Source: Planctomycetota bacterium
GTDB lineage: Bacteria; Planctomycetota; B15-G4; SIAN01
Length of the DNA: 64,000 nt
Assembly (NCBI GenBank): GCA_031409275.1
Contig: JANNXA010000049.1
Coordinates: 32,001-96,000 of the forward strand
Direction: 5' to 3'
Part shown: in pieces, positions 1,492-24,779 of the stretch
How positions within the stretch are numbered: position 1 is the stretch's first letter
How the letters are laid out: each line of letters opens with the position of its first letter
Position numbers and translations under genes: made by a program
The notes under the pieces: model-generated
Seen by the model: only the letters and a program-made list of their open reading frames with translations
The model's database searches: none
What the model was told of the DNA's origin: nothing

Positions 1492-1495
1492 GGCG

Positions 1496-6506: not shown

Positions 6507-6513
6507 GGCAAGC

Positions 6514-6549: not shown

Positions 6550-6590
6550 AGTGAATCACGGTCGTGGTCGTCGGGTCGAGCCGCGCTCGC

Positions 6591-7763
6591 TCAGGACGAG
6601 GAGGCCTTCAGCGCGAAGGCCGACTCATCGACGCGCAGCAGCGCCTTCTTGGTGCCCACGCAGACCTCGAAGTTGAGCGAGCCGCGCGTCTGGAAGATCT
6701 CGCAGGCGAGCTTGTTGCCCTTCGCGTCTTCGGAGGTGCCGGTGAGGCGCAGGTTGTCGGGGCGATTGACCGAGTCCTCGAGCACGATCTCGTTCTTCAC
6801 GAGCTGGCGCTGCGCCCGGGTCCGCAGCGGACCGACCTGCGCTTCCGCCTGCGCCCCGAACTGCTGGACGATCGCCTCGAACTGCTTCAGCGCGAGCTCG
6901 GTGGCGGCGTTCGACTGCTCCGCCTCCTCGCGCTCGCGGTTGCGCAGCAGCGCGACGATCTCGCTGCCCTGCTGCATCAAGTAGACGTTCATCGAGCAGT
7001 CGTCGCCCTCGATCTCGAGATCGATGGTGCCGACGATCATCGGCTTGGTGAGGTCGCTGTCGGCGGCCAACGAGCGCTGGTACCAGGTCGACTTGGCATC
7101 GTTGCCGTTCAGCTGCAGGTCGGCGTGGGTGACCGCCACCGCAGCGCAACCCGCGCTGAGCCGCAGCGGACCCCACGCGAGCGTGCACGTGGCGGTTTCG
7201 CCGCCGCCCGCGAGGTCGATGGTCATCAGCGGGACGATCTCGGGAGCATCGCCGACGAAGCGCGCGGCCACCTGATGCGCCGGCTCGTCGCCGATCATCG
7301 TCGGCGCCTGGTCGGCGTGCAGCGGCTCGTAGACGATGAAGCTCCAGGCGTTCTCGCCGGTGGCGATCAGGTTGAAGCCGTAGCGGCCCGGCTGGATCAG
7401 CTGGTCGCCGAAGAAGATCGGCGCGCCCTTCACGGTGATCGTGGAGATCTCGGCCGGCCCGGTGCCGGCGCCCATGCGCCACGGCTGGCCCGCCTGCGCG
7501 ATCTGCGCCATCTGGCCCAGGCGATCATCGCTCCATTCCGGCTGGCCATGCTCGACGGTCAACGTCGCTTCGCCCACCTTGGTGGTCGACGTGTGGCGCG
7601 TCGGGCCCTTCGGCGCCGCATCCTGCGTCGGCGCGCTCGCAGCGGGTGCGCCGGTCGCGGGCGGGGTGGCGGGAGCCGGGGTGGCTGGCTGTTGGGCATG
7701 GGCCGTTGCAGCAAGGACGAGAGTGGCCAGGCAAAGGGCACTCTGGGTGAGGCGCGCAGACAT
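6591..7763 (-). CDS. Secreted DUF2911-like domain protein with C-terminal extension
   Basis: Signal peptide ending AHA, Pro/Ala linker, then 'TLTVEHGQP...PWRMGAG...GDQLIQPGRY' resembling DUF2911. A GGAGG RBS lies upstream. Confidence 0.6.
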   Translation of the reverse strand: MSARLTQSALCLATLVLAATAHAQQPATPAPATPPATGAPAASAPTQDAAPKGPTRHTSTTKVGEATLTVEHGQPEWSDDRLGQMAQIAQAGQPWRMGAGTGPAEISTITVKGAPIFFGDQLIQPGRYGFNLIATGENAWSFIVYEPLHADQAPTMIGDEPAHQVAARFVGDAPEIVPLMTIDLAGGGETATCTLAWGPLRLSAGCAAVAVTHADLQLNGNDAKSTWYQRSLAADSDLTKPMIVGTIDLEIEGDDCSMNVYLMQQGSEIVALLRNREREEAEQSNAATELALKQFEAIVQQFGAQAEAQVGPLRTRAQRQLVKNEIVLEDSVNRPDNLRLTGTSEDAKGNKLACEIFQTRGSLNFEVCVGTKKALLRVDESAFALKASSS

Positions 7764-7873
7764 CGAATCCTCCTTCGAACGGAACGCTTGAGCGGCACCG
7801 CAGGGGGCTTCCGGACGCTTCCGGTCGCGGTGCCGGACGGGGCGCGAGAGTACCGAACACGAGCCGCGGGCGC

Positions 7874-8833
7874 TCAAGTTCCCGCGCTCTCGCCGTTCTG
7901 CCGCGGCGGCTGCAGGTCGGCCACCGTTCCGAGGCGCGCTTCGCACACTTGCTGGAAGAAGCAGCGGCGACATTCGTGGACGTCGGTGGTCGGCGGGAAG
8001 TCCTCGATGCGGGCGCTGTTGGCGGCGCGATCGACGAGCCGCTCCCGCATCGCCTCGGCGCTGGCGCGAACCTTCTCGGCGGCCCCGTCGAGCGCGGTGG
8101 CGCTGATCGGCACCTCGATCACGGTGCCGCTTTGGAGCATCACGTCGAATGCGCGCAGGCGCGTCGGATCGAGTCCCCACTTGGCGCGCGCGAAATGGGC
8201 GTAGGCGAGCAGCTGGAACGCGTGGTCGTTGCGCTCGCCGCCGGTCTTCCAGTCGAGCAGCCAGGTCTCACCGTCGCGGTCGAAGGCGAAGTCGGGGGCG
8301 ACGAAGCACGGCACGCATCCGATCGGCGCGACCTCGAGCTCGTCGATCGAGCGCCAGTGCGCCGGCCCGACCCGCTCGATGTCGCGTGCCAGCTCGCTGT
8401 CGAGGTGGTGGCGCACGCAGGCGACGGCGTGGTCGCGCAGCGCGGTCAGTTCGCTTGGCGCGATGGACAGCGCGAAGTAGTGCTCGAAGAGAGGCGGCGC
8501 CTGCTTGGGGCCGACGGTGCGCCAGCGCTCCTGCTTCGACGCGACCCACGCATCGTTCATGCGCTGGCGCAGCTGCTCGTACGGAGGGGTCGGCGTACGG
8601 CCGGCGGCGCGCGCGCGCAACAGGTCGGCAAGCGTGGCGTGGACCGCCGTGCCCGCCATCATCTTCAGCGTCGCCATCTTGCTGAAGAAGTAGGCGCGTT
8701 GCGCGAGCTCGGGCGCGCCGCGCGACCAGCCGCCCCAGAAAGCGTAGTAGCGCAGCCAGTAGCGCCGCTGGCAGGTCGCGAAGGTCTGCGCGCGCGAGAA
8801 CGACCAGGTGAACTCGTTCTTCAGCTCGGCCAT
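7874..8833 (-). CDS. PD-(D/E)XK nuclease (RecB/AddB/Cas4-like) with Cys cluster
   Basis: 'WSFSRAQTFATCQRRY', 'GTAVH', 'APDF...LLDWKTG', 'QLLAY', C-terminal 'CRRCFFQQVC'. Confidence 0.85.
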   Translation of the reverse strand: MAELKNEFTWSFSRAQTFATCQRRYWLRYYAFWGGWSRGAPELAQRAYFFSKMATLKMMAGTAVHATLADLLRARAAGRTPTPPYEQLRQRMNDAWVASKQERWRTVGPKQAPPLFEHYFALSIAPSELTALRDHAVACVRHHLDSELARDIERVGPAHWRSIDELEVAPIGCVPCFVAPDFAFDRDGETWLLDWKTGGERNDHAFQLLAYAHFARAKWGLDPTRLRAFDVMLQSGTVIEVPISATALDGAAEKVRASAEAMRERLVDRAANSARIEDFPPTTDVHECRRCFFQQVCEARLGTVADLQPPRQNGESAGT

Positions 8834-8879
8834 GGCGGGAACTGTAGCGCGATCGAAGCGCGCGTCGCGGAGCGCGCGG

Positions 8880-11800
8880 TCATGGCGAGGACAGCGGAAT
8901 GCGCAGCTCCGGCTCGCCCTTCAGCGTGATCGAGCGATCGATCGGCTGGCCGCGCAGCGATCCGTGCACGCGATAGGTCCCCGGCGCGAAGCGGCCAAGT
9001 CGCACGGCGTTCTGCTGCCACGGCGCGTTCAGCGCCTCGCTCAGTTCACCGAGTCCGAACAGCGTCAGTGGCAGCGGCCCTTGCGGACCGTCGATGGTGA
9101 GGGAAAGCGTGGCGAGATCGGCGAACTCGATGTCGCCGAGCAGCGCGAAAACCTCGGTGCCGCCGGTCAGTTCGAGTCGCACTCGGGCGATCTGTCCGAC
9201 GCTGGCGCGAACCGCGCGAGCCGTCGCCGTCGCGTGGCCGGCGGCGCGTGCGACCACGTCCCAGCTGCCCTCCGGCACGCCGCTGTACTCAAAGGCGCCC
9301 TCGCTGTCGCTCGAGACGCTCGACCACTCCTCCAGGAATCCTCCGCTGGCCGGATTGCGCAGGAAGAGCGATCCGTTCGCCACCGGCTTGCCCGCGCTGT
9401 CGACGAGCGTGCCGGCGATGGTCGCGGCGCGTGGCAGGCGGATCTCGCCGAGATCGACCGTGCCGGTCGCCGGCGCTTGCGCCGGAGTTGCCGCGAGCGC
9501 GTGGTCGCGTGAACGATTGGAGAGCAGATCGCCGCCGCCGGCGATCACTCGGCAGGCGCCGGCCGGGACCCGCGGCAGCGTGAAGCGGCCGTCCGCATTG
9601 GTGCGCACGGCCATCGTGCGGCGCATGGCCATTTCCATCGCGTTGGCCGATCCGCCGTCGGTCGCGGCGGCGAGGTAGATGGCGATCCCGGCCAACGGGA
9701 CGCCGCTTTCCGCATCGACCACCGCGCCGGTGAGGGCGCCTGCGGGCACGTCGATCGTGACATCGACGGTCGAGCCTTCCTTGAGCAGGACCGGAACCAG
9801 CGCGGCGTTCATGTCGCCGGCCGCGAAGTCACCGCCATGGACCTGCACGAAGGCGCGACCGGCCTGCAGAGCGTCGAATCGAAACGACCCGTCCGCCTCG
9901 GTGGTGGCCGCGGCCACGCCGCTCGAGCGTCCCTCTTCTCCCGATCCGATCACCTGAACCATCGCACCCGCGAACGGGCGTCCGCCGCTGGTGACGCGGC
10001 CCTCGAGCGCAGCGTGCCCTTGCGTCTGCGCGCCGAAGTCGACGCGCAGCTGCTCACCGGGCTTCAGGCGGACCGACTGCGTCTCGATCTGCCCCTGCAT
10101 CTCCTTCATGAAGTCGTCGCCGCCGATGGCGAGGTTCGACGGCATGCGCGTCAGCGCGAAGTTACCGGCGGCGAGCCCCTCGATGCGGTAGGCGCCGTTG
10201 GCGTCGCTCTTGGTCGACTGCATCGAGAAGCGCGTGAGGTCCTGGCACATGATGCTGGCGCCGGCGATCGGTGCCCGGTCGCTGCCGCGCACCTCGCCGA
10301 AGATCACGGCACCCGCGTCGAGTTCGACCTGGAGCTCCGCGGACGTCTCGCCCGCGGCGAGTGGCGGCGCCGTGAGCTCCACTTCGACGAATCCTTCGGC
10401 TCGAACGGCGATGCGATGGGCGCCGGCGCCGAGGCCGCCGATGCGGAATCGTCCGTCGCCGTCGCTCTTGGCGCCGACCGGCTGCAGCATGCGCGAGACC
10501 ATCTGCTGCAACATCGCCTGGTCGGCCTGGAGCTGGCGCACGCTCGCGCCGACGACCGGACGACCGTCTACGGCGGCGACCACGCGACCGAGCAGGACCG
10601 CCTCCGCTTGCAGCGAAGCGATGACGCCGCGCTTGGTCGCCCCCTCTTCAAGCGTGAACCACTCGCTGCGCCAGTCGCCGTGACCTTCGGCCGCGATCGT
10701 GAGGCGCAGGTCGCCCGGCTCGACGCCGGCGACGCGGAACTTGCCGTTCTCGGTCGCGAACGGCAGCGCGAGCTGTTGCAGCCCCTGGAAAGAGGATGCA
10801 TCGAACATGGAAGTCGGTTCAGCGGCACGCCGCTCGATTCGGAGCTCGAAGCTCTTCAGCGCTTTTCCGGTCACTCGCGAGAGGGCGATTCCCTCGATGG
10901 CACCGCGCGTGGCGAGCCGCAGTTCGACTGCCGTGGCGTTCGCCGCAGCCTCCGTCTTCGCCTCCTGATAGCCCGCGGCGCGCGCGACGACTTCGAGCTT
11001 GAAGTCGACGAGCCCGGTCAGCACGAAGGCGCCGTCGGCGTCGCATTCCGCGAAGCGGCGGCCGGCACCGGTGGCGGCGCGCATGACATTGGCGAGCGAA
11101 CTCGGCTCGCTGGCGGAGACGCGCGCGCCGCCGATGGGGGTGCCGTCCTTGGCGAGCACGTGGCCGCGCAGCTCGCGGCCTTTGGCGAGCTGCAGTTCGA
11201 CCGCGATCTCGGGTGCGGAGAGATCGACCACGACTTCGCGTCGGCACTCGACCCATGGCGGGAGATCGACGCGGACGTAGTAGCGGCCGGCGGCGATCCC
11301 GACGAAACGCGTCTGGCCTTCGGCGTCAAGCCGCTTGCGCACGCCGCGCACCGCGTCGCCCTGCGCCGTCATCTCGTCGAGCTTCAGGTCGGCGCGCTCG
11401 AGGCGGCAGAGCGCTGTGGCGACCGGCGCGCCGACGGCGTCGCGTGCGGTGACGGCGATCGTCGCGCCGCGCGACAGCGAGAGCTCGACTTCAGCGGTGC
11501 GTCCGGCGACGGTCGCCACCGTGACCGTCGGCGAACTCGCGAAGCCGTTGGCGTGCGCCGCGACGTGGAGCTCGAGTCCACCGGGGACGCCCGCCAGCGC
11601 GAACGCGCCGCTCGCGTCGCTGATGGCGCTCGCGGGTTTGCGCAGATCGAGTCCTTGCGCCGAGAACATGGCGAATGGATCGAAGTGCGTGCCGGCGACG
11701 ACGCGCGCGCCGGCGAAAGGGACCCCGTCGGGATCGAGGACGCGACCGCGGACGCTCGCCCCGTCGATCAGCAGGAGCTCGATCGGCGCCGGCTCCGCTT

Positions 11801-12395
11801 CCTTGCCGAGGTCGACGACGACGGGCTTCACGCACTCGGCCAATTCGGCGACCGCGTCGATCGTGAGTCGAATCGAATCGGCGATCGGCAATTCGAAGCG
11901 GCCGTCGGCGTCGGTGCGCGTTTGCGCGGTGGGATCGGAGCGCTCCTCGGTGTCGTCGCGCTCTTCGGTGGGAAGAGCGTCCTGTTCCGGCCAGGGCATG
12001 GCGCCCAGCGAGTCGAGGTCGTGCTGCGCCGCCGCCGGACGCGAGCTTCCGCGCGCGTCGGCGAGTCCCCGCTCGATTGACTGGCGTGCGAGTGGCGCCT
12101 GGCCGCGATGGGCGCGGACGAGCGCGTCAGCGGCGGGGCGGCCATCGGCGGCGAAGTGGACGACGCCGCGGATCGTATGACGCGCGGTGGCGGTCGCCGC
12201 TCGACTCGCCGTATCACGCTGCGCCGCGACTCCGACGTCGCTGCTGGCGGCGTCGGCGAGCGCGCTGCTGCCGTCGGCGCGCTTCGCCGCCGCGGGCGCC
12301 GCTCCGAGCTTCGGTCCCGTGGCGCGCTGGTTCCAGAAGGCAAGTCCGGCAAGGAGCAACGCGGCGATGAGCAGCCACGGGGCGGCGCGTTTCAT
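8880..12395 (-). CDS. Large membrane-anchored protein with tandem carboxypeptidase-regulatory-like (prealbumin-like) repeats
   Basis: N-terminal TM helix followed by about 9 repeats of 'GxVxDxxGxPxAGAxV...T/SDADGxF'. Confidence 0.85.
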   Translation of the reverse strand: MKRAAPWLLIAALLLAGLAFWNQRATGPKLGAAPAAAKRADGSSALADAASSDVGVAAQRDTASRAATATARHTIRGVVHFAADGRPAADALVRAHRGQAPLARQSIERGLADARGSSRPAAAQHDLDSLGAMPWPEQDALPTEERDDTEERSDPTAQTRTDADGRFELPIADSIRLTIDAVAELAECVKPVVVDLGKEAEPAPIELLLIDGASVRGRVLDPDGVPFAGARVVAGTHFDPFAMFSAQGLDLRKPASAISDASGAFALAGVPGGLELHVAAHANGFASSPTVTVATVAGRTAEVELSLSRGATIAVTARDAVGAPVATALCRLERADLKLDEMTAQGDAVRGVRKRLDAEGQTRFVGIAAGRYYVRVDLPPWVECRREVVVDLSAPEIAVELQLAKGRELRGHVLAKDGTPIGGARVSASEPSSLANVMRAATGAGRRFAECDADGAFVLTGLVDFKLEVVARAAGYQEAKTEAAANATAVELRLATRGAIEGIALSRVTGKALKSFELRIERRAAEPTSMFDASSFQGLQQLALPFATENGKFRVAGVEPGDLRLTIAAEGHGDWRSEWFTLEEGATKRGVIASLQAEAVLLGRVVAAVDGRPVVGASVRQLQADQAMLQQMVSRMLQPVGAKSDGDGRFRIGGLGAGAHRIAVRAEGFVEVELTAPPLAAGETSAELQVELDAGAVIFGEVRGSDRAPIAGASIMCQDLTRFSMQSTKSDANGAYRIEGLAAGNFALTRMPSNLAIGGDDFMKEMQGQIETQSVRLKPGEQLRVDFGAQTQGHAALEGRVTSGGRPFAGAMVQVIGSGEEGRSSGVAAATTEADGSFRFDALQAGRAFVQVHGGDFAAGDMNAALVPVLLKEGSTVDVTIDVPAGALTGAVVDAESGVPLAGIAIYLAAATDGGSANAMEMAMRRTMAVRTNADGRFTLPRVPAGACRVIAGGGDLLSNRSRDHALAATPAQAPATGTVDLGEIRLPRAATIAGTLVDSAGKPVANGSLFLRNPASGGFLEEWSSVSSDSEGAFEYSGVPEGSWDVVARAAGHATATARAVRASVGQIARVRLELTGGTEVFALLGDIEFADLATLSLTIDGPQGPLPLTLFGLGELSEALNAPWQQNAVRLGRFAPGTYRVHGSLRGQPIDRSITLKGEPELRIPLSSP

Positions 12396-12655
12396 GGATC
12401 GAGCTCCAGTGGAAAGGGGGCGACAGGAGCAAACGTAGGTCCCCGAGCTCCGTCCCAGCGCTGCGCGCACGTCGGACGGCGAAGGCCGGTCACCAACGTG
12501 GCGTCGGTGTGCCGATTCGACTCAGTTCGAATCGGGGCGCCTCCGCTTTACTCTCCCGCCCGTTCCGCTCGAAACAGCAACGATCGCGGCCATCGCAACG
12601 GCCGCTCGTCCACGCACGCCGGCCGTTCGTTCGGCCGACCCAGGAGCCCGCTGAC

Positions 12656-15118
12656 ATGAGGACTGCTCGTTGGATGGCGACCGCGTTGGTCGCGACGGCC
12701 ACGCTCACGACGGCTGCGCTGGCGATGTTGCCGCGCGCCAACGCGACGATCGCGAACGCTTCCCCGATCGGCGCGGCGGTCGCGACGTCACTGGTGGTCG
12801 CGCCGCCGACGGTGGCGTCGGATGCCGGCCCGCGGGTGGTCCTGCTGGGCTTCGACGGCGCCTCGCACCACCTCGCGGAACAGTTCATCGCCGAGGGGCG
12901 GATGCCGTGGGCGAAGAAGTTGATGGAGCAGGGCGCCTTCCTGCCGCTCGGTTCCGCCAACCCGTCCGAATCGCCGGTGGCGTGGGCGTCCGTCAACAGC
13001 GGCCAGAACCCGGGCAAGACCAACATCTTCGGTTTCATCCGCCGCACGTTCCGGTGGTCCGAGCTCACCGACGAGAAGGGGCAGCCGAAGCTCGTCGGCA
13101 GCGTGATCCCGACGATCGGCTACAGCCGCGGCGCCGACCTCGCGTTCCGCGACGGCTTCACCATGCCGTCGCATCAGAACGACTTGTCGGTGAAGAACTT
13201 CTGGGACCTGCTCGACGACGCCAAGCTCTCCTCGCGAGTGCTGCAGGCGGCGTGCAACTACCCGGCGACCGGCGGTCCGAACACCAAGCTGCTGGCAGGC
13301 CTCTCCGTGCCCGACGTGCGCGGCGGCCCCGGCACCTACCTCGTCTACACCAACAGCGAATGGGAGTTCAACCGCTCGACCGGCAACGGCGGGCAGGTGC
13401 TGAAGTACAAGGTCATCTGCCCGAAGTGCAAGAACAAGAGCTTCTCCTTCACCAAGGGCTGCGCGAAGTGCGCGGACGGCAACAAGGTCGGCTACTTCGA
13501 GACCAAGCTCTCGGGGCCGGAGAACTTCGTCGAAGCGCAGAAGTGGGCGCGCAAGATCGCCGAGCTGCAGAAGGCGTTCGATGCGGCGAAAGAAGGGGCG
13601 CCCGAGAAGCAGCAGCTGACCAAGGACCTGAACACGGCGAAGAATGACCGCAAGAAGTGGGAGGCGGACAAGGGCAACGCCTCGGTGCCGCTGTCCGGCC
13701 TCGTCGACAAGGCGGCCGGAACCATCAAGTTCACGCTGTCGGGCCAGGACGTCTTGCTGAAGGAGGGCGAGTGGTCGCCCTACATCCCGGTGACGTTCGA
13801 CGTCGAGGGTGCGTTCGCAGTGAAGGCGACGGCGCACCTGCACGTGTCGCAGTGCAATGCGACGGCAGAGGACGTGAAGTTCTATCTGCCGGCGATCACG
13901 GCGGCCGCCGACGCCACGCCGCCGAACATGCCGATCACCTCGCCGCGCGAGTTCGGGGCGGAGCTGGTGAAGGACGTCGGCTACTTCGACACGATCGGCT
14001 GGTCGTGCCAGACGCACGCGCTGAAGGATGACGAGATCGGCGACCTCTCGTTCATGTCGGCCATCTGGGACACGATCCAGTGGCGCCGCAAGATGCTGAT
14101 CGCGCAACTCGACAAGAATGACTGGCGGACGCTGTTCCAGGTCTTCGGCGAGACCGATCGCGTCTGCCACATGATGTACCGCTTCTTCGACCCCAAGCAC
14201 CCGCAGTACAAGGCCGAGGATGCCGCGAAGATGGTCCGCTTCGGTCCGCGCGAGATCGCGGCAAAGGACGCCATCCCGGCGATCTACGAGGAAGTCGACA
14301 AGACCATCGGCATCGTGATGGAGCGGCTCGAAGCGGGCAAGCTCGGCGACTGCACGCTGATGGTCTGCTCGGACCACGGGTTCAGCTCGTTCCGCGAGGA
14401 GGTCGAGCTCAACGCTTGGCTCGTCGACCAGGGCTTCATGACGCTGAAGACCGAGCCCGACGGCAAGCCGACCACCAACAAGTCGTTCCTCGGCTACGTC
14501 GACTGGGCGAAGACGAAGGCCTACTCCGTCGGCATCGGGACGATCTACCTGAACGTGAAGGGGCGCGAGCCCAATGGCAGCGTCGACCCGGCCGACTACG
14601 ACAAGGTCTGCGATGAGCTGATCGCGAAGATGCTGGCCTACCGCAATCCGAACAAGGAATCGCCCAACGATCCGCAGGTCTTCAAGGGCGCGTGGAAGCG
14701 CAGCGAGTACCTCGCGGGACCGTTTGCCACCGACCTGCGCGACGCCAAGGGGCGCTGCACGGAAGGGGCGGCCGACGTCCAGGTTGGTTTCAACGTCGGC
14801 TACCGCGTCGGCTGGGGCACGGCGATGGGCGACCGCAGCAAGGACGCCATCATCTTCCCGAACAAGAACCGCTGGTCGGGCGACCACACCTCGGTCCATC
14901 CGTACCTCGTGCGCGGGATCTTCTTCTGCAGCAAGAAGGTGGCGCCCGGTTCGGCTCCGCACCTGCAGGACCTCGCGCCGACGATCCTCGCCCTCCACGG
15001 CGTGCCGGTGCCGGCCGACATGGATGGCCACCTGATCGCGCTGCCGGGTCTCGAGGAGTTGGCGAAGAAGCACGTCGGCGGCAGCGCCAATCGCGAGTCG
15101 CTGATTCCGCCGAACTGA
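12656..15118 (+). CDS. AlkP-superfamily (NPP/phosphodiesterase-type) protein 1, Sec signal, with CxxC..CxxC insert
   Basis: 'LLGFDGA', 'NPSESPVAWASVNSG', 'ETDRVCH', 'CSDHGF', 'WSGDH', 'DLAPTIL'. AGGAG RBS upstream. Confidence 0.88.
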   Translation: MRTARWMATALVATATLTTAALAMLPRANATIANASPIGAAVATSLVVAPPTVASDAGPRVVLLGFDGASHHLAEQFIAEGRMPWAKKLMEQGAFLPLGSANPSESPVAWASVNSGQNPGKTNIFGFIRRTFRWSELTDEKGQPKLVGSVIPTIGYSRGADLAFRDGFTMPSHQNDLSVKNFWDLLDDAKLSSRVLQAACNYPATGGPNTKLLAGLSVPDVRGGPGTYLVYTNSEWEFNRSTGNGGQVLKYKVICPKCKNKSFSFTKGCAKCADGNKVGYFETKLSGPENFVEAQKWARKIAELQKAFDAAKEGAPEKQQLTKDLNTAKNDRKKWEADKGNASVPLSGLVDKAAGTIKFTLSGQDVLLKEGEWSPYIPVTFDVEGAFAVKATAHLHVSQCNATAEDVKFYLPAITAAADATPPNMPITSPREFGAELVKDVGYFDTIGWSCQTHALKDDEIGDLSFMSAIWDTIQWRRKMLIAQLDKNDWRTLFQVFGETDRVCHMMYRFFDPKHPQYKAEDAAKMVRFGPREIAAKDAIPAIYEEVDKTIGIVMERLEAGKLGDCTLMVCSDHGFSSFREEVELNAWLVDQGFMTLKTEPDGKPTTNKSFLGYVDWAKTKAYSVGIGTIYLNVKGREPNGSVDPADYDKVCDELIAKMLAYRNPNKESPNDPQVFKGAWKRSEYLAGPFATDLRDAKGRCTEGAADVQVGFNVGYRVGWGTAMGDRSKDAIIFPNKNRWSGDHTSVHPYLVRGIFFCSKKVAPGSAPHLQDLAPTILALHGVPVPADMDGHLIALPGLEELAKKHVGGSANRESLIPPN

Positions 15119-15249
15119 AGGCGCGTCGCGCGACGAAGCCCATGAATGCAGCGCGGGCGGCTCGGGAGATCCCGGGCCGCCCGCGTCGTTTCCGTTCGAG
15201 TCATCGCCGGCCATCGCCGGTCGGTGGCGTCACGCGTTCGTGCGCGCGA

Positions 15250-15831
15250 TCACTGCTGCGCGCCCGTCTCCTCCTCGTCCTCGCCTTCAGCGCCGAGATA
15301 GCCGAGCGCCTTCAGCTGGTCGAGCGCGCCCGAGTCGCCCGCCTCCATGAACTTCTGCTCGCAGAACTTCGCGACGCGCTTCAGCTTTTTCATCACGACC
15401 GCGTCGGTCCCGAACTTCTTCTTCGCCACCTCGAGCAGGTCCAGCGCAACCTTCGGGTGATCGCTCTCCGCGAGGCCGATCCCGAGCGAGGCGTACTGCT
15501 CCGCCGTCAGCACCGCGGTCGACGCGGCCATCTGTTGCACCGCCGCCTTGCCGGCGTCGTCACCGTTGCCGCGCGCGGACGCGGTGATCTTGTCGCTCCA
15601 CGCCTGCGCCTTCTCTTCGGCGGTCGCCTTGGAGTCGGCAAGCGCCGCGTCGAGCGCCACAAGGGCCGCCTTCCACTCCTCCTTGGCGGCGGCGCTAGTC
15701 GCGTCGTCGAGGAGTTCGCTTGCGCTCTTGCCGGAGGTTGGCGCTCCACCGGAGTCGGTCGGCTTCTGGTCGCCGCATGCCGCGACGAGTGAGAGAGCGA
15801 TCAGGGCGGTGAGCAGGTGCGTGGGGCGCAT
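15250..15831 (-). CDS. Helical (TPR-like) lipoprotein with C-terminal LKALGYL motif
   Basis: Lipobox 'LVAAC', Ala/Lys-rich helices, ending 'ALDQLKALGYLGAEGEDEEE'. Confidence 0.75.
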   Translation of the reverse strand: MRPTHLLTALIALSLVAACGDQKPTDSGGAPTSGKSASELLDDATSAAAKEEWKAALVALDAALADSKATAEEKAQAWSDKITASARGNGDDAGKAAVQQMAASTAVLTAEQYASLGIGLAESDHPKVALDLLEVAKKKFGTDAVVMKKLKRVAKFCEQKFMEAGDSGALDQLKALGYLGAEGEDEEETGAQQ

Positions 15832-15990
15832 GAATTCAAAGTGCTCCGTAGCGGAAGTAGGGGGGGCGAGAGCGTAGCGGCGAAAGTGTCTTTGGCCGCG
15901 GAGGCCGCCGTGCTGCTTGGACGGCGGTCGCCCGCTCGCGTCGATGGTCGGCGCGGGACCCTACCTCGCCTCCGCGCCGCCGGCACCGCC

Positions 15991-16063
15991 TTGACGAGCC
16001 GCAAAGCGAAGGTATCTATTCCGCCTCCAATGAGAGTGCGATCGGAGTGCGATTGGAGTGCGA
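15991..16063 (+). promoter_or_regulatory. Putative promoter/operator: TTGACG -35-like box plus three GAGTGCGA direct repeats at 11-bp period
   Basis: TTGACG at 15991 and an AT-rich TATCTATT at 16013 (poor -10 match). GAGTGCGA occurs at 16034, 16045 and 16056. Inverted CTCCAAT/ATTGGAG at 16025/16052. Confidence 0.55.
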
Positions 16064-16116
16064 CCGCTTCGGAGGCGGGCGCTGCCGTTGCCCGATCTCG
16101 CCGTCTTGAGGGCCCG

Positions 16117-16362
16117 ATGCGCGAAAGCAAGGTGACGGTCAAGATCCCGCGGCCGCTCTACCGCAAGATCCAGCTCGTCATCGAGAACTCCGGCTTCTCG
16201 TCGCCAACCGATTTTGTCGTCTTCGTGCTCCGCGATCTCCTCGGCGAGGCCGAGCGCAAGAGTGCCGAGCCGACGGCGGCCGCAGCTGCGACCGCGGACG
16301 ACTTTTCCGCGCACGACCTCGAGGCAGTGAAGCACAAGCTGAAGAACCTGGGATACCTGTGA
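16117..16362 (+). CDS. CopG/ribbon-helix-helix protein with C-terminal LxxLGY tail
   Basis: 'VTVKIPRPLYRKIQ...GFSSPTDFVVFVLR' is the RHH strand-helix-helix pattern. It ends 'KHKLKNLGYL'. Confidence 0.85.
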   Translation: MRESKVTVKIPRPLYRKIQLVIENSGFSSPTDFVVFVLRDLLGEAERKSAEPTAAAAATADDFSAHDLEAVKHKLKNLGYL

Positions 16363-16416
16363 CGCGCCGGTCGGCCGCGGCTTCGCAGCCGCCGGCGCGC
16401 GCGCGTTCTTGAACCG

Positions 16417-16458
16417 CGTTTCTGACACCGTTTCTGAAGACACCGTTTCTGAAGACAC
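16417..16458 (+). repeat. Tandem direct repeat CGTTTCTGA(AGA)CAC x3 immediately upstream of the sat RBS
   Basis: Copies at 16417 (12 nt), 16429 and 16444 (15 nt each), followed by GAGGA and the ATG at 16470. Confidence 0.85.
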
Positions 16459-16469
16459 AGAGGAATTCG

Positions 16470-17624
16470 ATGATCGCTCCGCATGGTGGACGGCTGGTGA
16501 ACCGGATGGTCGAGGGCGGCGAGCGCGATCGCCTGCTCGCTTCGGCTCCGAAGCTCCCGAAGGTGGTCCTGAACGCGCGCGAGATGGCCGACGTCGACAT
16601 GATCGCCGTCGGTGCCATGAGCCCGCTGCAGGGCTTCATGGGCAAGGCGGACTACGACGCCGTGCTCGCGACGCGCCGACTGAACAACGGCCTGCCGTGG
16701 ACGATCCCGATCGTGCTCGCCGTCAAGCCCGGCACGAGCGCCGAGGCGTACAAGGAGGGCAGCGATGTCGCCCTCGAGACGACCGACGGGCAGCTGCTCG
16801 CCATCCTCCACCTCGACTCGAAGTGGAAGATGGACAAGGGTGACGAGGCGCGGAAGGTGCTGCGCACGGACGACAAGGCGCACCCTGGCGTCGGCTACCT
16901 CGAGTCGATCGGCGACACCTACCTCGGCGGCACGCTGTCGGTGGTCAACCGCCTGAAGTACGACAAGTACAACAACCGCCGCCTCGACCCGGTCGAGACG
17001 CGGACGCTCTTCAAGAGCAAGGGCTGGAACACGATCGTCGCGTTCCAGACGCGCAACCCGATCCATCGCGCGCACGAGTACCTCACCAAGGTCGCGCTCG
17101 AAGTCGTCGACGGCCTGATGCTCCACCCGCTGATGGGCGAGACCAAGAGCGACGACGTCCCGGCCGACGTGCGCATGAAGTGCTACGAAGCGCTCCTCGC
17201 CGGCTACTACCCGAAGGAGCGCACGGCGCTCGCCGTCTATCCGCAGGCGATGCGCTACGGCGGGCCAAGCGAGGCCGTTCTCCACGCGATCTGCCGCAAG
17301 AACTACGGCTGCACCCACTTCATCGTCGGTCGCGACCACGCCGGCGTCGGCAGCTACTACGGCAGCTACGACGCGCAGAAGATCTTCGAGGAGTACGCCC
17401 CCGGCGAAGTCGGGATCAACCTCCTCAAGTTCGAGAACTCGTTCTGGTGCAAGCGCACCAACGGCATGGCCTCGACCAAGTCGAGCCCGGCCACGCCGGA
17501 AGAGCGCATCAACCTCTCGGGCACGCAGGTGCGCGAGATGCTGCGCGCCGGCACCATCCCGCCGGTCGAGTTCACGCGCCCGGAGATCGCGAAGATCCTG
17601 ATCGACGCGCTCAAGGCGACCTGA
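16470..17624 (+). CDS. sat: Sulfate adenylyltransferase (ATP sulfurylase, Sat type)
   Basis: 'PHGGRLVN', 'AFQTRNPIHRAHEY', 'RKNYGCTHFIVGRDHAGVG', 'LSGTQVREML'. Confidence 0.97.
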   Translation: MIAPHGGRLVNRMVEGGERDRLLASAPKLPKVVLNAREMADVDMIAVGAMSPLQGFMGKADYDAVLATRRLNNGLPWTIPIVLAVKPGTSAEAYKEGSDVALETTDGQLLAILHLDSKWKMDKGDEARKVLRTDDKAHPGVGYLESIGDTYLGGTLSVVNRLKYDKYNNRRLDPVETRTLFKSKGWNTIVAFQTRNPIHRAHEYLTKVALEVVDGLMLHPLMGETKSDDVPADVRMKCYEALLAGYYPKERTALAVYPQAMRYGGPSEAVLHAICRKNYGCTHFIVGRDHAGVGSYYGSYDAQKIFEEYAPGEVGINLLKFENSFWCKRTNGMASTKSSPATPEERINLSGTQVREMLRAGTIPPVEFTRPEIAKILIDALKAT

Positions 17625-17684
17625 TCGCGCGTCCGCCGCGATTCCTCCCTAACTCCCCCAAAGACTCAAGGAAACGGACGACCC

Positions 17685-18284
17685 ATGGAAGGTTTCACGC
17701 TCTGGTTCACCGGGCTCTCGGGCTCGGGCAAGTCGACGCTCGCGGAACGGATCAAGAACGAGCTGATCGAGCGCGGCATGAAGGTCGAGCTGCTCGACGG
17801 CGACGAGTTCCGCACGACGCTCAGCAAGGGGCTCGGCTTCAGCAAGGAAGACCGCGACACCAACATCCGCCGCATCGGTTACGTGGCGAAGCTGCTGTCG
17901 CGCAACGGCGTCGTGGCGATCACCGCCGCGATCTCGCCCTATCGCGATACGCGCAACGAGCAGCGCCAGAAGATCGGGCGCTTCTTCGAGGTCTACACCG
18001 AATGCGATCTCGACACCCTCGAGGCGCGCGACGTGAAGGGGCTCTACAAGAAGGCGCGCGCCGGCCAGATCAAGAACTTCACCGGCGTCGATGACCCGTA
18101 CGAGCCGCCGACCAGCCCCGAGGTCCACTGCAACACGGCGAAGGAGGAGCAGGACGCCTGCTTCGACCGCATCCTCACCGCGCTCGAAGCGCGCGGCTGG
18201 GTGGCGAAGCCCGCCGGCGATGGCATCGACCAGGCGACCGAGGCCGCTGCGATGCGCTCGCTCAAGGCGAAGGGTTTCATCTGA
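17685..18284 (+). CDS. cysC: Adenylyl-sulfate kinase with extra C-terminal tail
   Basis: '[12 protein letters not shown]', 'LDGDEFR', '[16 protein letters not shown]', '[13 protein letters not shown]', '[11 protein letters not shown]'. Confidence 0.97.
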
Positions 18285-18356
18285 CGATTGCCGGCACCTC
18301 CGGCGTGGACGGCACGACGGCAACTCCGTCCAAGTCGTCACGTCGGAGGTGCAGCG

Positions 18357-18620
18357 ATGGCGGATCTCTTCAGCGTCCTGGCCTACATCGGGCCGGGAAT
18401 CGGTCATTCCTCCCCGTGGTCGACCTGGCTCGACCAGGCGTGCGTCAGTGTCGTGATGACGATCGTGGTCGGCGCGCTCCTCGGCCTTGCCGGCGCGCTG
18501 CCTGGGGCGCTTTGGATCGGCTGGTATTCCGCGCGCATGGCGCCGCGGCGGTTCGCACGCCGGGTCACGCTTCGGATCGGGTCGACTTTTCCCGACGCGC
18601 TGGCCGATCACCCGCGTTGA
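18357..18620 (+). CDS. Small single-pass membrane protein with AYIGPG motif
   Basis: GGAGGT RBS 6 nt before the ATG. Sequence 'MADLFSVLAYIGPGIG', then a TM helix and an Arg-rich tail. The motif is shared with the next gene. Confidence 0.6.
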   Translation: MADLFSVLAYIGPGIGHSSPWSTWLDQACVSVVMTIVVGALLGLAGALPGALWIGWYSARMAPRRFARRVTLRIGSTFPDALADHPR

Positions 18621-18731
18621 GGAAGGCTTGCCTCGCACCACGATGGCGCCTCAAGCTCGGGGGCTATACCTGTCGTACCTTTCGCGATCGAAGCGGCGGC
18701 CCGCGCGCCGCCGTCATGGTTTGAGGTCTGC

Positions 18732-20920
<2,189 letters not shown>

Positions 20921-20924
<4 letters not shown>

Positions 20925-22957
20925 GCCGAAAGGACGCCTCCGTGACCTTGCAGAGCCACCGTTTCCCGATCGCCGCGCTGCTGCTCGGCGCGCTTGCGCT
21001 CGCGGCGCCCTCCTGTAGCCGCTCCTACGGCGTCAGCGGCAAGAAGCTCGTCGTGCTCGGCATCGACGGCATGGACCCGAACCTGCTGCGCGAGTACATG
21101 GACGCCGGCCTGCTGCCGAACTTCAAGGAGTTGGCCGACTCCGGCACCTTCCTGCCGCTTGGCACCAGCAACCCGCCGCAGTCGCCGGTCGCGTGGTCGA
21201 ACTTCATCACCGGGATGGATCCTGGCGGCCACGGCGTCTACGACTTCCTCCATCGCGATCCGCAGACCTACCTGCCCGTGAGTTCGACGCAGATCACCGA
21301 AGGCGAACCGACGACGTTCTCGCTGCCGGGCGACTATCAGCTCGAGCTGCCAGCCGACAGCCGCCCGGTTCGTCAGGGTGCCGCGTTCTGGGACCTGCTC
21401 GGCGAGGCGGGGATTCGCTGCGACGTCTATCGCATGCCCGCCGCCTATCCGATCCAGGCCAGCGATCAGCTGACGCTCTCCGACATGGGGACGCCCGACC
21501 TGCAAGGCGGCATCGACGGGATGTACGCCTACTACACCAGCGACGTCCCGGACAACTTCGACAAGGTGCACGGCGGGATCTGGAAGCAGGTGAAGCTGCA
21601 GAAGGGGCGCGCTGACGCGAAGCTCTACGGACCGCCGAGCCCCTTCAAGACGCCGCCCGAGGGCAAGCACGAGGTCGCGAAGTCGGAGCAGCCGTTCACG
21701 ATCTTCGTCGACCCGACCGAAGAGGTCGTCCACATCGCGATCGAGGGTGGCGACGCCTGCGTGCTCGAGAAGGGGCAGTGGAGCGACTGGCTGCGCTGCT
21801 CGTTCGACCTCGGCCTGAAGCAGTCGATGGGCGGCATGGTGAAGTTCTACGTGCAGCAGGTGCGCCCGAACCTGCGCCTCTACTGCTCGCCGGTGAACAT
21901 CGACCCGCGTGCGCCGTGCATGCCGATCTCGACGCCCGACGACGCCGCCGTGATCGACCTCGCCGCCTCGATCGGCCCGTTCTACACGCAGGGTCTTGCC
22001 GAGGAGACCAAGGCGCTGCAGGAAGGGACGATCGACGACCGCGAGTTCATCGAGCAGTGCAACGACATCCATCACGAGCGCATGCGCATGCTCGACCACG
22101 CGCTCGCGCATTTCGACGACGGGCTGCTCTTCTTCTATTTCTCCACCGTCGACCTGCGCAGTCACATGATGTGGCGCCACATCGCGGCCGGTCACCCGGC
22201 GCGCGACGAGAAGATCGCGGCGCAGTACGCCCGCTCGATCGAGGATTCCTACGTCCTCATGGACCAGGCGCTCGGTCACCTGCGCGAGAAGATCGGCGAG
22301 GCGACGCCGCTGATGGTCCTCTCCGACCACGGCTTCTCGCCCTTCACGCGCCGCGTCAACTTGAACAACTGGCTGCTGAAGGAGGGCTACCTCGTCCTCA
22401 CCGAGAAGGCGGCGCAGGACCCGAAGGGGGTCTACTCGCTCGCCGAGGGCGGCGGTGTCGACCGCTCGAAGTCGCGCGCCTATGCGGTCGGATTCAACGG
22501 CATCTACCTGAACCAGAAGGGGCGCGAGAAAGAGGGCGTTGTCGAACCGGCCGCGCGCGACGCGCTGCTGGCCGAGATCCGCGGCAAGCTGCTCGCGCTG
22601 CGCGACGAGTCGAAGGGTGGCGCCAAGGTGGTCTTCCGCGCCGATCTGCGCGACGAGATCTACCACGGTGATCAGCTCGACCACGCACCCGACCTCGTCG
22701 TCGGCTACGACCGCGGATTTGGCGCTTCCGACACCACGGCGCTTGGCCAGGTGCAGCCGCGCGACGCCTTCGTCGAGGACAACAAGGACCTCTGGAGCGG
22801 CAACCACTTGATGGCGCCCGATGTGGTGCCGGGCATCTTCCTCACCAACCGCAAGATCGATCCGAAGGACCCCTGCCTGTACGACCTCACGGTGACGATG
22901 CTCGCCTACTTCGGCGTCAGCAAACCCGCCGTGATGCGCGGCAAGAGCCTGTTCTGA
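20921..22957 (+). CDS. AlkP-superfamily (NPP-type) protein 3, probable lipoprotein
   Basis: Hydrophobic stretch ending 'LAAPSC', then 'LGIDGMD', 'NPPQSPVAWSNFITG', 'DLRSH', 'LSDHGF', 'WSGNH'. ATGA overlap with the previous gene. Confidence 0.92.
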
Positions 22958-23053
22958 ATCGAGCCGGATCGCCGCGCTCGCGACTCGTGACCTGAACCAA
23001 CCACGACCCAACGACCCGCGCCTGCGCTGCAGGCGCTTCCGACGGAGCAACCC

Positions 23054-23254
23054 ATGTTCGGTGGCAACAAGGTCAAGCTCGAGAAGGATGTCTTCGAGAA
23101 GCTGAAGAAGTTCGCGGCCGCGGCCGGCTACAGCTCGCTCGACGAGTTCGTGAACCACATCCTCGAGCGCGAGCTGCAGTCGATGGACACTGGCGGCAGC
23201 GAGGACCCCGAGGCGATGCGCGAGAAGCTGCGCGGCCTCGGCTACATCTCCTGA
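23054..23254 (+). CDS. Second small RHH-like protein with LRGLGYIS tail
   Basis: 'KVKLEKDVFEKLKKFAAAAGYSSLDEFVNHILE' resembles the 16117 protein. GGAG RBS upstream. Confidence 0.85.
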   Translation: MFGGNKVKLEKDVFEKLKKFAAAAGYSSLDEFVNHILERELQSMDTGGSEDPEAMREKLRGLGYIS

Positions 23255-23346
23255 TCGCAGCCACCACGACGAACGCATGAGGCGCCCGCCGCCTGCCCCC
23301 GACTCCGGGGTGCGGGACGGCGCGGCGTGCGGAGCACGGAGCGAAG

Positions 23347-24192
23347 ATGGATGCGGTGAATCGCGCGATGAAGTCGACGTTCGACGTCCTGTGGACGCCG
23401 TTCGCTTCGGCCCCGTTGTGGGTCGGAGTGCTGGTGCTTGGCGTCGCCTTCGGCGTCCTCGCGCTGATCGCGATGAAGTACACGACCAATCCCAAGCGCG
23501 TCAGCCACTACAAGGACCGCTACCAGGGGCACATCCTCGCCATCAAGCTGTTCCGCGACAGCTTCTCGGTGGTGATCAGTTCGCTCGGGCGGACGCTGGC
23601 CTGGGTCGGCGCCTACCTCACCGAGCAGTTCAAGCCGATGCTGGTGATGCTCATCCCGTTCATGCTGCTCTTCGCGCAGATGCAGATGCGGCTTGGCTAT
23701 CGGCCGCTCGACGTCGGTGCGCCGGTGCTGTTGACGGTCGACCTCGCTCCCGGCCAGTCGGTCGAGGCGATGGCGCTGTCGCTGCAGATGCCGGAAGGTC
23801 TCGAGTCACGCACGAAGATGGTGCGCGAGCCCGGCGAGAACCGCGTCGTGATGTCGATCGCCGCGAAGTCCGCCGGCGCCCACGTGCTCAAGCTGACCTG
23901 CGCGGGCGAGACGGTCGAGAAGACGATCCACGCGGGCGCGCTCGCGGGCGCGCCGATGGTCTTCCCGGTGCGCTCGAACGACTTCGTCGACCAGCTGCTC
24001 TATCCGGGGGAGGACTCCTTCGGCGCGACCTCGCACTTCCGCCGCATCTCGCTCGCCTATCCGGTGCGCCCGATCGACTGCTTCGGCTTCGACTTGAGCT
24101 TCGGCAGCGAGATCGGCATGGCGATGACGTTCGTCCTCATCACGATCGTCGCGGCCTTCGGGTTGAAGGGCGTCTTCGGCGTCACCATCTGA
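23347..24192 (+). CDS. Membrane protein, DUF106/EMC3/TMCO1 (Oxa1 superfamily)-like, with inserted soluble beta domain
   Basis: TM1, a charged helical hairpin, 'QFKPMLVMLIPFMLLF' (TM2), a beta-rich domain and a C-terminal TM. The family call rests on remembered motif resemblance only. Confidence 0.55.
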   Translation: MDAVNRAMKSTFDVLWTPFASAPLWVGVLVLGVAFGVLALIAMKYTTNPKRVSHYKDRYQGHILAIKLFRDSFSVVISSLGRTLAWVGAYLTEQFKPMLVMLIPFMLLFAQMQMRLGYRPLDVGAPVLLTVDLAPGQSVEAMALSLQMPEGLESRTKMVREPGENRVVMSIAAKSAGAHVLKLTCAGETVEKTIHAGALAGAPMVFPVRSNDFVDQLLYPGEDSFGATSHFRRISLAYPVRPIDCFGFDLSFGSEIGMAMTFVLITIVAAFGLKGVFGVTI

Positions 24193-24215
24193 CGCCCCCG
24201 CCGTCGACGCCACCG

Positions 24216-24779
24216 ATGCCCCGTTCCGAGCAGAGCTACGACCCGCAGGTCGAACGCGCGATCGCCCTGGCGCTGCGCGCGCATGCGGGGCAGGAGCGCA
24301 AGGGGCAGGTCGGCGTTCCCTACGTCGTCCACCCGCTGCACGTCGGGATGCTCCTGGCACGCCACGGCTTCGAACCCGAGGTGGTGGCGGCGGGCATCCT
24401 CCACGACGTGGTGGAGGACTGCGACATCGGGCTTCCCGAGCTCGCGCTGCGTTTCACGCCGCGGGTCGTCGCGCTGGTGGCCGAGGTGAGCGAGTCGAAA
24501 GAGAAGAGCTGGGAGCAGAGGAAGCAGCACACGATCGACGCGATCCCCGGAATGAGCGATGGGGCGCGCGCCGTGACGGCGGCCGACAAGGTGCACAACC
24601 TCGCCGACCTCGAGCGACTGCTCGGCGAGCGCGGCGAAGAGGTGTGGAAGCTCTTCCGGCGCGGGCGCGGCCCGACGCTCGACTACTACGAGCGGGTCCA
24701 CGCGCAGCTGGCTCGCCACTTCGCCCACGCGCTCACCGACGAGCTTCGGCTGCGCTTCGACGCCGTCGCGCAGCGCTGA
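24216..24779 (+). CDS. Stand-alone HD-domain (p)ppGpp hydrolase-like protein (Mesh1/SAH type)
   Basis: 'AHAGQERKG...PYVVHP', 'GILHDVVED', 'ADKVHN'. Confidence 0.85.
   Translation: MPRSEQSYDPQVERAIALALRAHAGQERKGQVGVPYVVHPLHVGMLLARHGFEPEVVAAGILHDVVEDCDIGLPELALRFTPRVVALVAEVSESKEKSWEQRKQHTIDAIPGMSDGARAVTAADKVHNLADLERLLGERGEEVWKLFRRGRGPTLDYYERVHAQLARHFAHALTDELRLRFDAVAQR

Follow-up and report, generated by a model that had tools for sequence, protein, structure and literature searches.

A stretch of 64,000 nucleotides from the genome of a Planctomycetota bacterium (contig JANNXA010000049.1, positions 32,001 to 96,000; hereafter ‘the window’) carries on its plus strand, over positions 16117-24192, a run of seven genes that overlap or are separated by short gaps, in the order RHH1, Sat, CysC, AlkP2, AlkP3, RHH2 and Memb. 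Judged by comparison with related sequences, the window contains the planctomycete version of a membrane module, AlkP2-AlkP3-RHH2-Memb, that is widespread and undescribed and in which RHH1, the ATP sulfurylase Sat and the adenosine 5′-phosphosulfate (APS) kinase CysC have been joined to the module in one operon. The reading that we prefer, which for us falls a little short of an even call, is that of a sulfation-linked, two-sided envelope module, the parts of which are probably held together by short peptide tails containing the residues LGY. The window has a G+C content of 70%, and genes were chosen by third-position G+C together with family searches; gene identities were assigned by profile searches with Pfam and NCBIfam. 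The assembly comprises 5.59 Mb and is 92.9% complete.

Organization of the gene cluster and its conservation in close relatives

The run begins with RHH1 (16117-16362), an 81-amino-acid (aa) protein that resembles ribbon-helix-helix (RHH) proteins and ends in KLKNLGYL. It is followed by Sat (16470-17624; PF01747, E 3e-92; PF14306; NF003166, 519 bits) and by CysC (17685-18284; PF01583, E 1.3e-62), which has a C-terminal extension of ~25 aa ending in LKAKGFI. The four core genes come next: the enzyme AlkP2 (18732-20924), its paralog AlkP3 (20921-22957), which has a signal peptide, the 66-aa protein RHH2 (23054-23254), which ends in KLRGLGYIS and for which 89 orthologs were aligned, and Memb (23347-24192), a protein with three transmembrane (TM) helices and a weak match to the EMC3/TMCO1 family (PF01956, E 7e-4). 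Directly upstream of the run are found AlkP1 (12656-15118, plus strand), an exported paralog of the SPVAW type with SESPVAW, SDHG and WSGDH motifs, and, divergently on the minus strand, Lipo193 (15250-15831), a lipoprotein-like protein of 193 aa whose translation has a signal peptide followed by VAAC, and LKALGYL in its C-terminal region. The first-pass annotation, which was made from this DNA sequence alone, had described a co-oriented run of sat, cysC, AlkP, RHH and membrane-protein genes with a further AlkP gene upstream, and all of these are present at the positions given here; Lipo193 was not named in it, yet belongs to the cluster. The annotation had also counted a YIGPG peptide among the genes of the run, and this did not hold up. 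Translated searches of 113 related loci, same-genus ones included, gave no match below E 0.07 to the open reading frame (ORF) in question (18354-18620, plus strand; 88 aa, LAYIGPGIG), and the spacer that holds it shows DNA likeness in its 3′ half only, at one same-genus locus. The YIGPG motif occurs in the window's genome only in this ORF and in AlkP2; that the ORF might be a partial copy of the 5′ end of AlkP2 was rejected, as only short, chance-level matches were found. It is probably no gene, and a role as a component of the system was rejected for want of a conserved counterpart.

Conservation in close relatives was studied in a set of 33 loci from the same order, comprising up to 20 kb around Sat and searched with the window proteins. 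The run RHH1-Sat-CysC-AlkP2 was found at six of six Sat loci of the window's family (f1) and at 13 of 13 Sat loci of a second family (f4), with AlkP3-RHH2-Memb next wherever the contig continues; since it recurs at 19/19 Sat loci of the two closest families, the gene arrangement is not due to chance. In three of the nine f2 loci the module is on the strand opposite to Sat-CysC, at a distance of 1 to 8 kb, and no module was found near Sat in f3 (one locus) or f5 (four loci). AlkP1 is a lineage-specific addition of f1 that stands outside the conserved core: it was found in L014-L018, and AlkP1-like copies, 34-40% identical, are present beside Sat in two f2 genomes (L039, L042), where they adjoin a small sulfotransferase-Sat pair. 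Family f4 has an additional gene between Sat and CysC, here called gene X, that is absent from the window and its family. It encodes a cytoplasmic protein of ~318 aa without a signal peptide that belongs to the sulfatase family PF00884 (E 8e-7 to 2e-9), and it occupies the same position in the Planctomycetota loci inspected (L019, L025, L030, L043, L095, L099, L101 and L108). The motifs DS(C/L)RYDSF and ELFGE.GYFGHGPIMHEK were observed in gene X.

Conservation of the module across phyla

A scan with the AlkP2 alignment of one genome per species (185,579 species genomes) identified at least 594 related loci, of which the best 80, 47-59% identical to AlkP2, were examined. By label, 30 of these belong to Planctomycetota and 40 to other groups, with 10 unlabelled, some labels of metagenome-assembled genomes being clearly unreliable; the 40 comprise Acidobacteriota (12), ‘Pseudomonadota’ (8), Thermodesulfobacteriota/Dadabacteria (6), Myxococcota (4), ‘delta proteobacterium’ (3), Binatota (2), Spirochaetota (2) and three singles. 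The four-gene core AlkP2-AlkP3-RHH2-Memb is complete in 66 of the 80 loci, and 12 of the remaining 14 end no more than 2.7 kb past AlkP2. Sat or CysC was found within 10 kb at 17 loci, namely 13 of the 30 from Planctomycetota, four of the 10 unlabelled and none of the 40 from other phyla. Because Sat/CysC accompany the module in 13/30 planctomycete loci and in 0/40 loci from elsewhere, the four-gene module is, as far as these sequences tell, an ancient unit and its fusion to PAPS (3′-phosphoadenosine 5′-phosphosulfate) synthesis a planctomycete trait. The linkage to sat and cysC that had been proposed at the outset is thus conserved in the two closest families and does not extend to the loci labelled as other phyla.

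The co-occurrence of the module with PAPS synthesis was also assessed at the level of whole genomes. Of 301 Planctomycetota genomes that are 85% or more complete, 42 contain an AlkP2 ortholog (E<=1e-150); all 42 have an APS kinase, as against 165 of the 259 others (two tables compared by eye). In 20 of these 42 genomes the coordinates place CysC no more than 3 kb from AlkP2, and in ten of ten checked module genomes without Sat/CysC near the locus an APS kinase was found elsewhere. Other neighbours of the module were surveyed by running Pfam on 92 proteins that flank it at 17 loci where Sat/CysC are not close by. The only recurrent families were a small P-loop sulfotransferase and further sulfatase-family or PF01663 genes. 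The small sulfotransferase (190-210 aa, PF13469/PF00685) is found directly after Memb or before AlkP2 and is 47-81% identical between loci; translated searches placed it next to the module at 13 of the 80 loci, of which none is labelled Planctomycetota, and it stands divergently beside Sat in four f2 loci. In two loci of Dadabacteria type (L073 and L088), genes for a PF00884 protein of 686 aa, an AlkP2-like protein and a subtilase were observed upstream of the module, at ~6300-9900.

PAPS synthesis and the probable absence of PAPS reduction

Sat has a single match in the whole genome. In this 92.9%-complete genome no match was found to the PAPS/APS reductase and CysD family (PF01507), the profile of which matches 14/14 reference genomes, nor to sulfite reductase (PF01077), which matches 11/14. 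Since the genome lacks matches to PAPS reductase and sulfite reductase, PAPS is most likely made as the sulfate donor for sulfation, in line with the earlier statement that the cluster does not serve sulfate assimilation. Two genes of the CysQ/SuhB type (PF00459) are present, which makes it unlikely that the AlkP genes act as a replacement for the phosphatase that removes 3′-phosphoadenosine 5′-phosphate (PAP).

The AlkP enzymes

AlkP1, AlkP2 and AlkP3 are members of PF01663 (88, 117 and 114 bits, respectively, against a cut-off of 23), a large paralog family with 70 matches in the genome. Among the genome's reading frames of at least 300 aa, the SPVAW loop occurs in an AlkP setting only in these three. 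Of the motifs that the first-pass annotation described as common to them, S-PVAW, SDHG and WSG(D/N)H were recovered in all three by pattern search and D-x3-H by reading the translations. The nucleophile loop, S-P-V-A-W, aligns at the position of the sulfatase C-x-P-x-R and does not conform to the formylglycine-sulfatase motif C/S-x-P-x-R; the PF00884 scores of the AlkP proteins, 16-18 bits, are under the cut-off of 25. NCBIfam was found to contain no model specific to AlkP1-3, RHH1, RHH2, Memb or the lipoprotein, and neither it nor Pfam has one for the module parts beyond PF01663.

AlkP2 orthologs are ~50% identical between phyla, and S126 of the SPVAW loop, DxxDxxxH, SDHG and WSGDH are retained in 97 of 97. 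A search of the sequences of solved structures with AlkP2 gave marginal sulfatase and nucleotide pyrophosphatase/phosphodiesterase (NPP) matches only (E 8e-5 to 2e-3). An AlphaFold2 (AF2) model built from a 51-row alignment (pLDDT 86.8, pTM 0.85) has a core of NPP type, and the top Foldseek folds are Xac NPP, SPAP, ENPP1/3/6/7, PafA and PhnA, at E 1e-9 to 4e-7. Against Xac NPP (2gsn/7n1s) the Foldseek match has E 1e-9, a TM score on target of 0.61-0.64 and 10-11% identity; residues ~148-352 form a β-rich insert that lies outside the Foldseek matches. The N-terminus of AlkP2 consists of a signal-peptide-like helix, AxA, YIGPGAG, a single TM helix and an R/K-rich stretch, and YIGPG(A/S)G is found in 89 of the 97 orthologs, with AxA ahead of it in 67. 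The positive-inside rule would place the catalytic domain on the cytoplasmic side, with an invariant stub of ~8 residues left outside. AlkP3 orthologs begin with signal peptides, so that AlkP3 should lie outside the cytoplasm and is predicted to be periplasmic; a lipobox-like cysteine was found in 25/80 by a simple pattern, and QSPVAW and SDHG are kept in 79-80 of 80. A two-sided layout of the AlkP enzymes is thus plausible.

The nearness of the core to NPP folds raises the question of nucleotide housekeeping, in which AlkP2 together with RHH2 would cut APS, PAPS or PAP and so regulate the pool of activated sulfate at the membrane, AlkP3 and AlkP1 would be ordinary exported phosphodiesterases or phosphatases, and sulfation would be left to canonical sulfotransferases. 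NPPs accept both APS and PAPS, the closest folds to AlkP2 are indeed nucleotide pyrophosphatases/phosphodiesterases (Xac NPP, ENPP1/3), the linkage of the module to CysC is tight, and the 70 PF01663 matches would fit an expansion of hydrolases. We nonetheless consider this explanation distinctly unlikely: the two PF00459 genes are already there for the removal of PAP, and the exported paralog, the membrane protein, the periplasmic YIGPGAG stub and the LGY lipoprotein are all left without explanation.

RHH2 and the LGY tails

RHH2 is ~50% identical between phyla, and is 100% identical to the copy in a genome of the same genus (G004, locus L014). In the 89 aligned sequences its tail always reads (K/R)L(R/K/Q/E)GLGY(I/L)(S/E), and Y64 and the flanking G-L-G are invariant in an alignment of 47. 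RHH1 is a paralog of RHH2 that is always located ahead of Sat; its tail is KLxNLGYL, with all 29 homologs ending in LGYL. The 25-aa extension of CysC has an LGY-like tail that is kept in f1, f4, f3 and L094, the tyrosine often being replaced by phenylalanine (LKAKGFI, LNFI). Of the 92 loci having room for it, 46 have a divergently oriented upstream ORF of 100 aa or more that bears an LGY tail, as does Lipo193 in the window. Upstream of the module in L048 (1367-7585), three LGY-tailed frames were observed in tandem, one of them matching AlkP3. Across the window's genome the motif L[KRQ]x[LM]GY[ILVM] is present in 21 reading frames, 13 of which are PF01663 paralogs that carry it mostly at or near the C-terminus (examples in G000 are the frames at C51:123512, C10:68678 and C55:440789). 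In this organism the LGY tail is a feature that AlkP-superfamily proteins have more generally, beyond the cluster. AlkP2 and AlkP3 themselves have no such tail, and tails for them may be supplied in trans.

The first-pass annotation had suggested modelling the components as complexes, and the prediction made for AlkP2 (residues 76-705) with RHH2 gave a positive result. Both proteins were supplied as custom alignments and three runs were made; the complex reached a median score of 0.62, the best control reaching 0.00, with at least 83% contact agreement over the three runs and a partner pLDDT of at least 73. Of 157 solved complexes, 116 reach a score of 0.62, as do two of 215 mismatched pairs, these counts being approximate for custom alignments. 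On RHH2 the confident contacts are residues 22, 24-28, 31-32, 35, 46-48, 52 and 55-65, which cover the invariant G25, Y26, E31, F32, L59 and G61-Y64 and the nearly invariant H35. On AlkP2 they are residues 135-141, just past the nucleophile loop, 388-393, and W648 of WSGDH; the catalytic residues S126, D499/H500 and H652 are not among them. An RHH2 profile matched 353 clusters at E<=1e-10 (1.84 billion representatives), and in one of these proteins (P0104, 817 aa) RHH2 is joined in frame to a full-length AlkP2 ortholog. An apparent second fusion, P0021, looks like a frameshifted AlkP3-RHH2 read-through. RHH2 was also observed as a tandem duplicate (P0001, 113 aa) and behind a multi-TM domain (P0032, 323 aa). 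Because RHH2 is predicted to bind the catalytic domain of AlkP2 through its invariant residues and LGY tail, it looks like an enzyme subunit, and the modelling indicates that it is likely a subunit of AlkP2 and not a repressor.

Two other roles for these small proteins were considered. RHH1 and RHH2 could be ordinary ribbon-helix-helix operon repressors, in which case the AlkP genes would share regulation or location with sat and cysC and have no pathway in common with them. A β-α-α pattern can be read in both sequences, RHH1 has a weak match to RHH_8 (E 0.003), and both genes sit at operon positions typical of small regulators. The RHH_8 match is, at 18.1 bits, below the cut-off of 25.4, and with no Pfam RHH match to RHH2 there is no such model above cut-off for either protein; in addition, RHH2 is conserved to ~50% identity between phyla with its invariant residues mapping onto the predicted AlkP2 interface, the same tail is found on enzymes and exported proteins, and in one case AlkP2 and RHH2 are fused. 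Repressors are, in our judgement, very improbable. The second role is that the tyrosine of the LGY tail is itself O-sulfated or O-phosphorylated, such that the tails would be protein-borne carriers or AlkP substrates as opposed to passive tags. Such a role would fit the invariance of Y64 and of the flanking G-L-G in the 47 RHH2 sequences and the location of the tail in the predicted interface, near residues that flank the catalytic motifs of AlkP2 (W648 of WSGDH), and PF13469 is a family that includes tyrosylprotein sulfotransferases. The absence of S126, D499/H500 and H652 from the list of confident contacts speaks against it, as do the CysC tails, which often have phenylalanine at this position and so argue against an obligatory hydroxyl; the chance that the tyrosine is modified is in our view slight indeed.

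The membrane protein Memb

The AF2 model of Memb (pLDDT 94.4, 54-row alignment) consists, in order, of an N-terminal helix, TM1, a long coiled-coil hairpin, TM2, an immunoglobulin (Ig)-like β domain (126-236) and TM3, with helices at residues 24-46, 49-68, 73-117 and 255-277. This layout is the Oxa1/DUF106 plan with a domain inserted in the outer loop, and the sidedness that we infer places the coiled-coil hairpin in the cytoplasm and the Ig-like domain in the periplasm. PF01956 (EMC3/TMCO1) matches five of 54 Memb orthologs at E<=0.01, the best at E 3.8e-7. Structure searches spoke neither for nor against kinship with Oxa1: Foldseek matched only the Ig-like domain (E>2e-3), and the VIA wide fold search returned generic helical hairpins only (Z<=8.1), among which the cytoplasmic domain of Get1 (8cqz_B) ranked 37th with Z 7.2 and rmsd 2.5 over 63 residues. 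Memb is possibly of the Oxa1/DUF106 type. The DUF106 family is described as archaeal and eukaryotic (PMC5868721). A crossing step is proposed for Memb because YidC is called both an insertase and a lipid scramblase (PMC11997395).

Canonical sulfotransferases and the question of transfer by AlkP enzymes

It was stated in the first-pass annotation that the cluster has no P-loop sulfotransferase. Pfam searches indeed found none within 12656-24192, but the window contains one elsewhere, a canonical Sulfotransfer_3/1 protein at ~5400-6506 on the plus strand (PF13469, E 2.6e-35; start codon uncertain, domain at ~5547-6161). It is the best of five PF13469 matches in the genome, is syntenic in the same-genus loci L015 and L016, and is found ~6 kb upstream, adjoining a Wzx flippase, with three minus-strand genes before the cluster. 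A sulfotransferase 34-35% identical to it is present in two f2 genomes (L040:8725-9540 and L041:12248-13060); as it is located there ~1 kb past Sat-CysC, this larger type of sulfotransferase is also tied to PAPS synthesis. The argument that the AlkP enzymes must be the transferases does not follow, because canonical sulfotransferases are found near the cluster in the window and beside the module in 13 other loci.

The AlkP enzymes might still act as non-canonical sulfuryl or phosphosulfo transferases, with Ser126 of AlkP2 taking the group from APS or PAPS and passing it to a membrane carrier, and AlkP3 and AlkP1 passing it from there to an envelope acceptor. In f1 and f4 the module is fused to Sat/CysC without the small sulfotransferase seen elsewhere, the SPVAW loop aligns with the position of the sulfatase C-x-P-x-R, and the catalytic motifs are intact in all 97 AlkP2 orthologs; moreover, CysC shares a docking tail of RHH2 type, which would bring PAPS synthesis beside AlkP2, the predicted partner of RHH2. 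To be set against these points are the five PF13469 matches in the genome, one of them ~6 kb upstream and syntenic within the genus, and the canonical sulfotransferase found within the module in 13 other loci, and we know of no AlkP-fold enzyme that uses PAPS as donor. On balance we regard transfer by the AlkP enzymes as doubtful, and the interpretation offered by the first-pass annotation is partly supported. In its most developed form it would make the AlkP/NPP fold a new class of PAPS-/APS-dependent sulfuryl transferases, in which AlkP2-RHH2, docked to CysC via LGY tails, loads a membrane carrier with activated sulfate on the cytoplasmic side, a bacterial DUF106/Oxa1-type protein provides for the passage of that carrier across the membrane, and AlkP3 and the LGY lipoprotein deliver the sulfate to an envelope acceptor; this, too, is a proposal that we would back only as an outsider. 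Were it true, it would be the first extracytoplasmic sulfation route that still starts from PAPS.

A working model of the module

Under the reading that we prefer, a sulfation-linked envelope module, the module would handle an intermediate of an envelope component that is bound to the membrane and either sulfated or derived from PAPS. AlkP2-RHH2, with AlkP2 tethered to the inner membrane, would act on the intermediate at the cytoplasmic face, Memb would provide for its passage across the membrane, and AlkP3, perhaps with the LGY lipoprotein, would transfer or trim it outside. The LGY tails of RHH1, RHH2, CysC and the lipoprotein would be docking tags that hold these parts together. The topology, the crossing step, the substrate and the choice between transfer and hydrolysis by the AlkP enzymes are the parts of this scheme that we infer.

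Several observations weigh against the scheme. At 92.9% completeness, the absence of the reduction genes is not proven. A PAPS-making or PAPS-using gene is present beside the module in 30 of the 80 loci, and none was found in the fetched stretch for the other 50, including all 12 from Acidobacteriota; the small sulfotransferase was found in only two of five further module genomes and not in the window's, and was rejected as a universal partner. In the 17 loci surveyed, genes for building an acceptor do not recur next to the module. APS kinase is common in any case (207/301 genomes) and the genomes are related, which makes its co-occurrence with AlkP2 weak evidence. The AlkP2-RHH2 complex is a prediction from custom alignments and the topology of the module is read from sequence alone, whilst the kinship of Memb to Oxa1 is weak, the window copy scoring 19.9 bits against a PF01956 cut-off of 27.1. 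Finally, the bimetallo sites of NPPs are tuned to phosphoryl and not to sulfuryl transfer.

Neighbouring genes

The Wzx-type flippase (Polysacc_synt; PF01943, E 2.6e-18) that adjoins the window sulfotransferase is encoded at 4267-5535 on the plus strand. Ahead of the two, at 1049-4260 on the same strand, an AMP-binding (acyl-adenylate-forming) enzyme and a protein resembling GDSL-type hydrolases were observed, and these genes, together with the flippase and the sulfotransferase, may form a small unit for a modified, sulfated glycan or lipid. A minus-strand gene at 8880-12470 encodes an exported protein of 1196 aa with eight CarboxypepD_reg repeats (PF13620, E 1.8e-83), which was found in f1 only, adjoining AlkP1 in L014-L018. 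After Memb, a plus-strand frame at 24200-24779 has HPLHV and HDVVED motifs in its translation; we take it to be similar to HD-domain hydrolases of the RelA/SpoT type.

Significance and comparison with known systems

The route by which bacteria sulfate their envelope outside the cytoplasm is largely unknown, because PAPS stays inside the cell. The combination described here is unusual, in that a pair of phosphatase-fold enzymes, predicted to occupy the two faces of the membrane, occurs together with a shared peptide tail, which seems to link the parts, and a membrane protein of a type so far described from archaea and eukaryotes only. It is spread over many poorly studied phyla, with at least 594 related loci and 353 RHH2 clusters, and no description of it was found in the literature searched, the coverage of which did not extend to subscription journals. 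The module offers candidates for a new enzyme-subunit pair, for a possible new sulfotransfer chemistry and for a bacterial protein of Oxa1/DUF106 type. Were it merely a set of hydrolases, it would still be a large family that is annotated in databases only as ‘alkaline phosphatase family’.

Dedicated sulfation clusters supplied with their own PAPS are known from rhizobia, where NodP/NodQ act with NodH, and from Xanthomonas, where RaxP/RaxQ act with RaxST and RaxX. Like these, the window operon encodes an ATP sulfurylase and an APS kinase of its own, in a genome without matches for PAPS reduction, and the module has canonical sulfotransferases nearby or, in other phyla, inside it. Unlike them, the window operon contains neither a sulfotransferase nor an acceptor-building gene; the Wzx flippase and the GDSL-like gene are located upstream of it in the window. 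Its core is made up of a pair of enzymes with the NPP fold, a 66-aa protein with a tail and a protein with three TM helices, which in most other phyla are found without sat/cysC.

Memb has three TM helices and a coiled-coil hairpin between TM1 and TM2 in common with Ylp1/MJ0480 (DUF106), EMC3, TMCO1 and GET1. It differs from this family, which is described as archaeal and eukaryotic (PMC5868721), in being bacterial, in having an Ig-like domain in the TM2-TM3 loop and in its sub-cut-off score.

The AlkP enzymes share with the PF01663 NPPs and their relatives (Xac NPP, ENPP1/3/6/7, PafA, PhnA) the Pfam family, the bimetallo motifs, a Ser/Thr nucleophile and, as modelled for AlkP2, the core fold. 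They are distinguished from them by an identity of only 10-13% and by the placement of the serine in an S-PVAW loop, and AlkP2 in addition by a β-rich insert of ~200 residues, its membrane tether, its predicted cytoplasmic catalytic domain and its dedicated small subunit. LtaS, EptA/MCR-1 and OpgB are AlkP-superfamily enzymes that transfer a phospho-alcohol group to an envelope acceptor via a covalent Thr/Ser intermediate, and their chemistry may serve as a mechanistic analogy for AlkP3. As we understand them, LtaS, EptA and OpgB are PF00884 proteins with a five-helix membrane domain that carry out catalysis outside the cytoplasm using lipid donors, whereas the enzymes of the module are PF01663 members with a single TM helix or a signal peptide that are predicted to be paired on opposite faces of the membrane.

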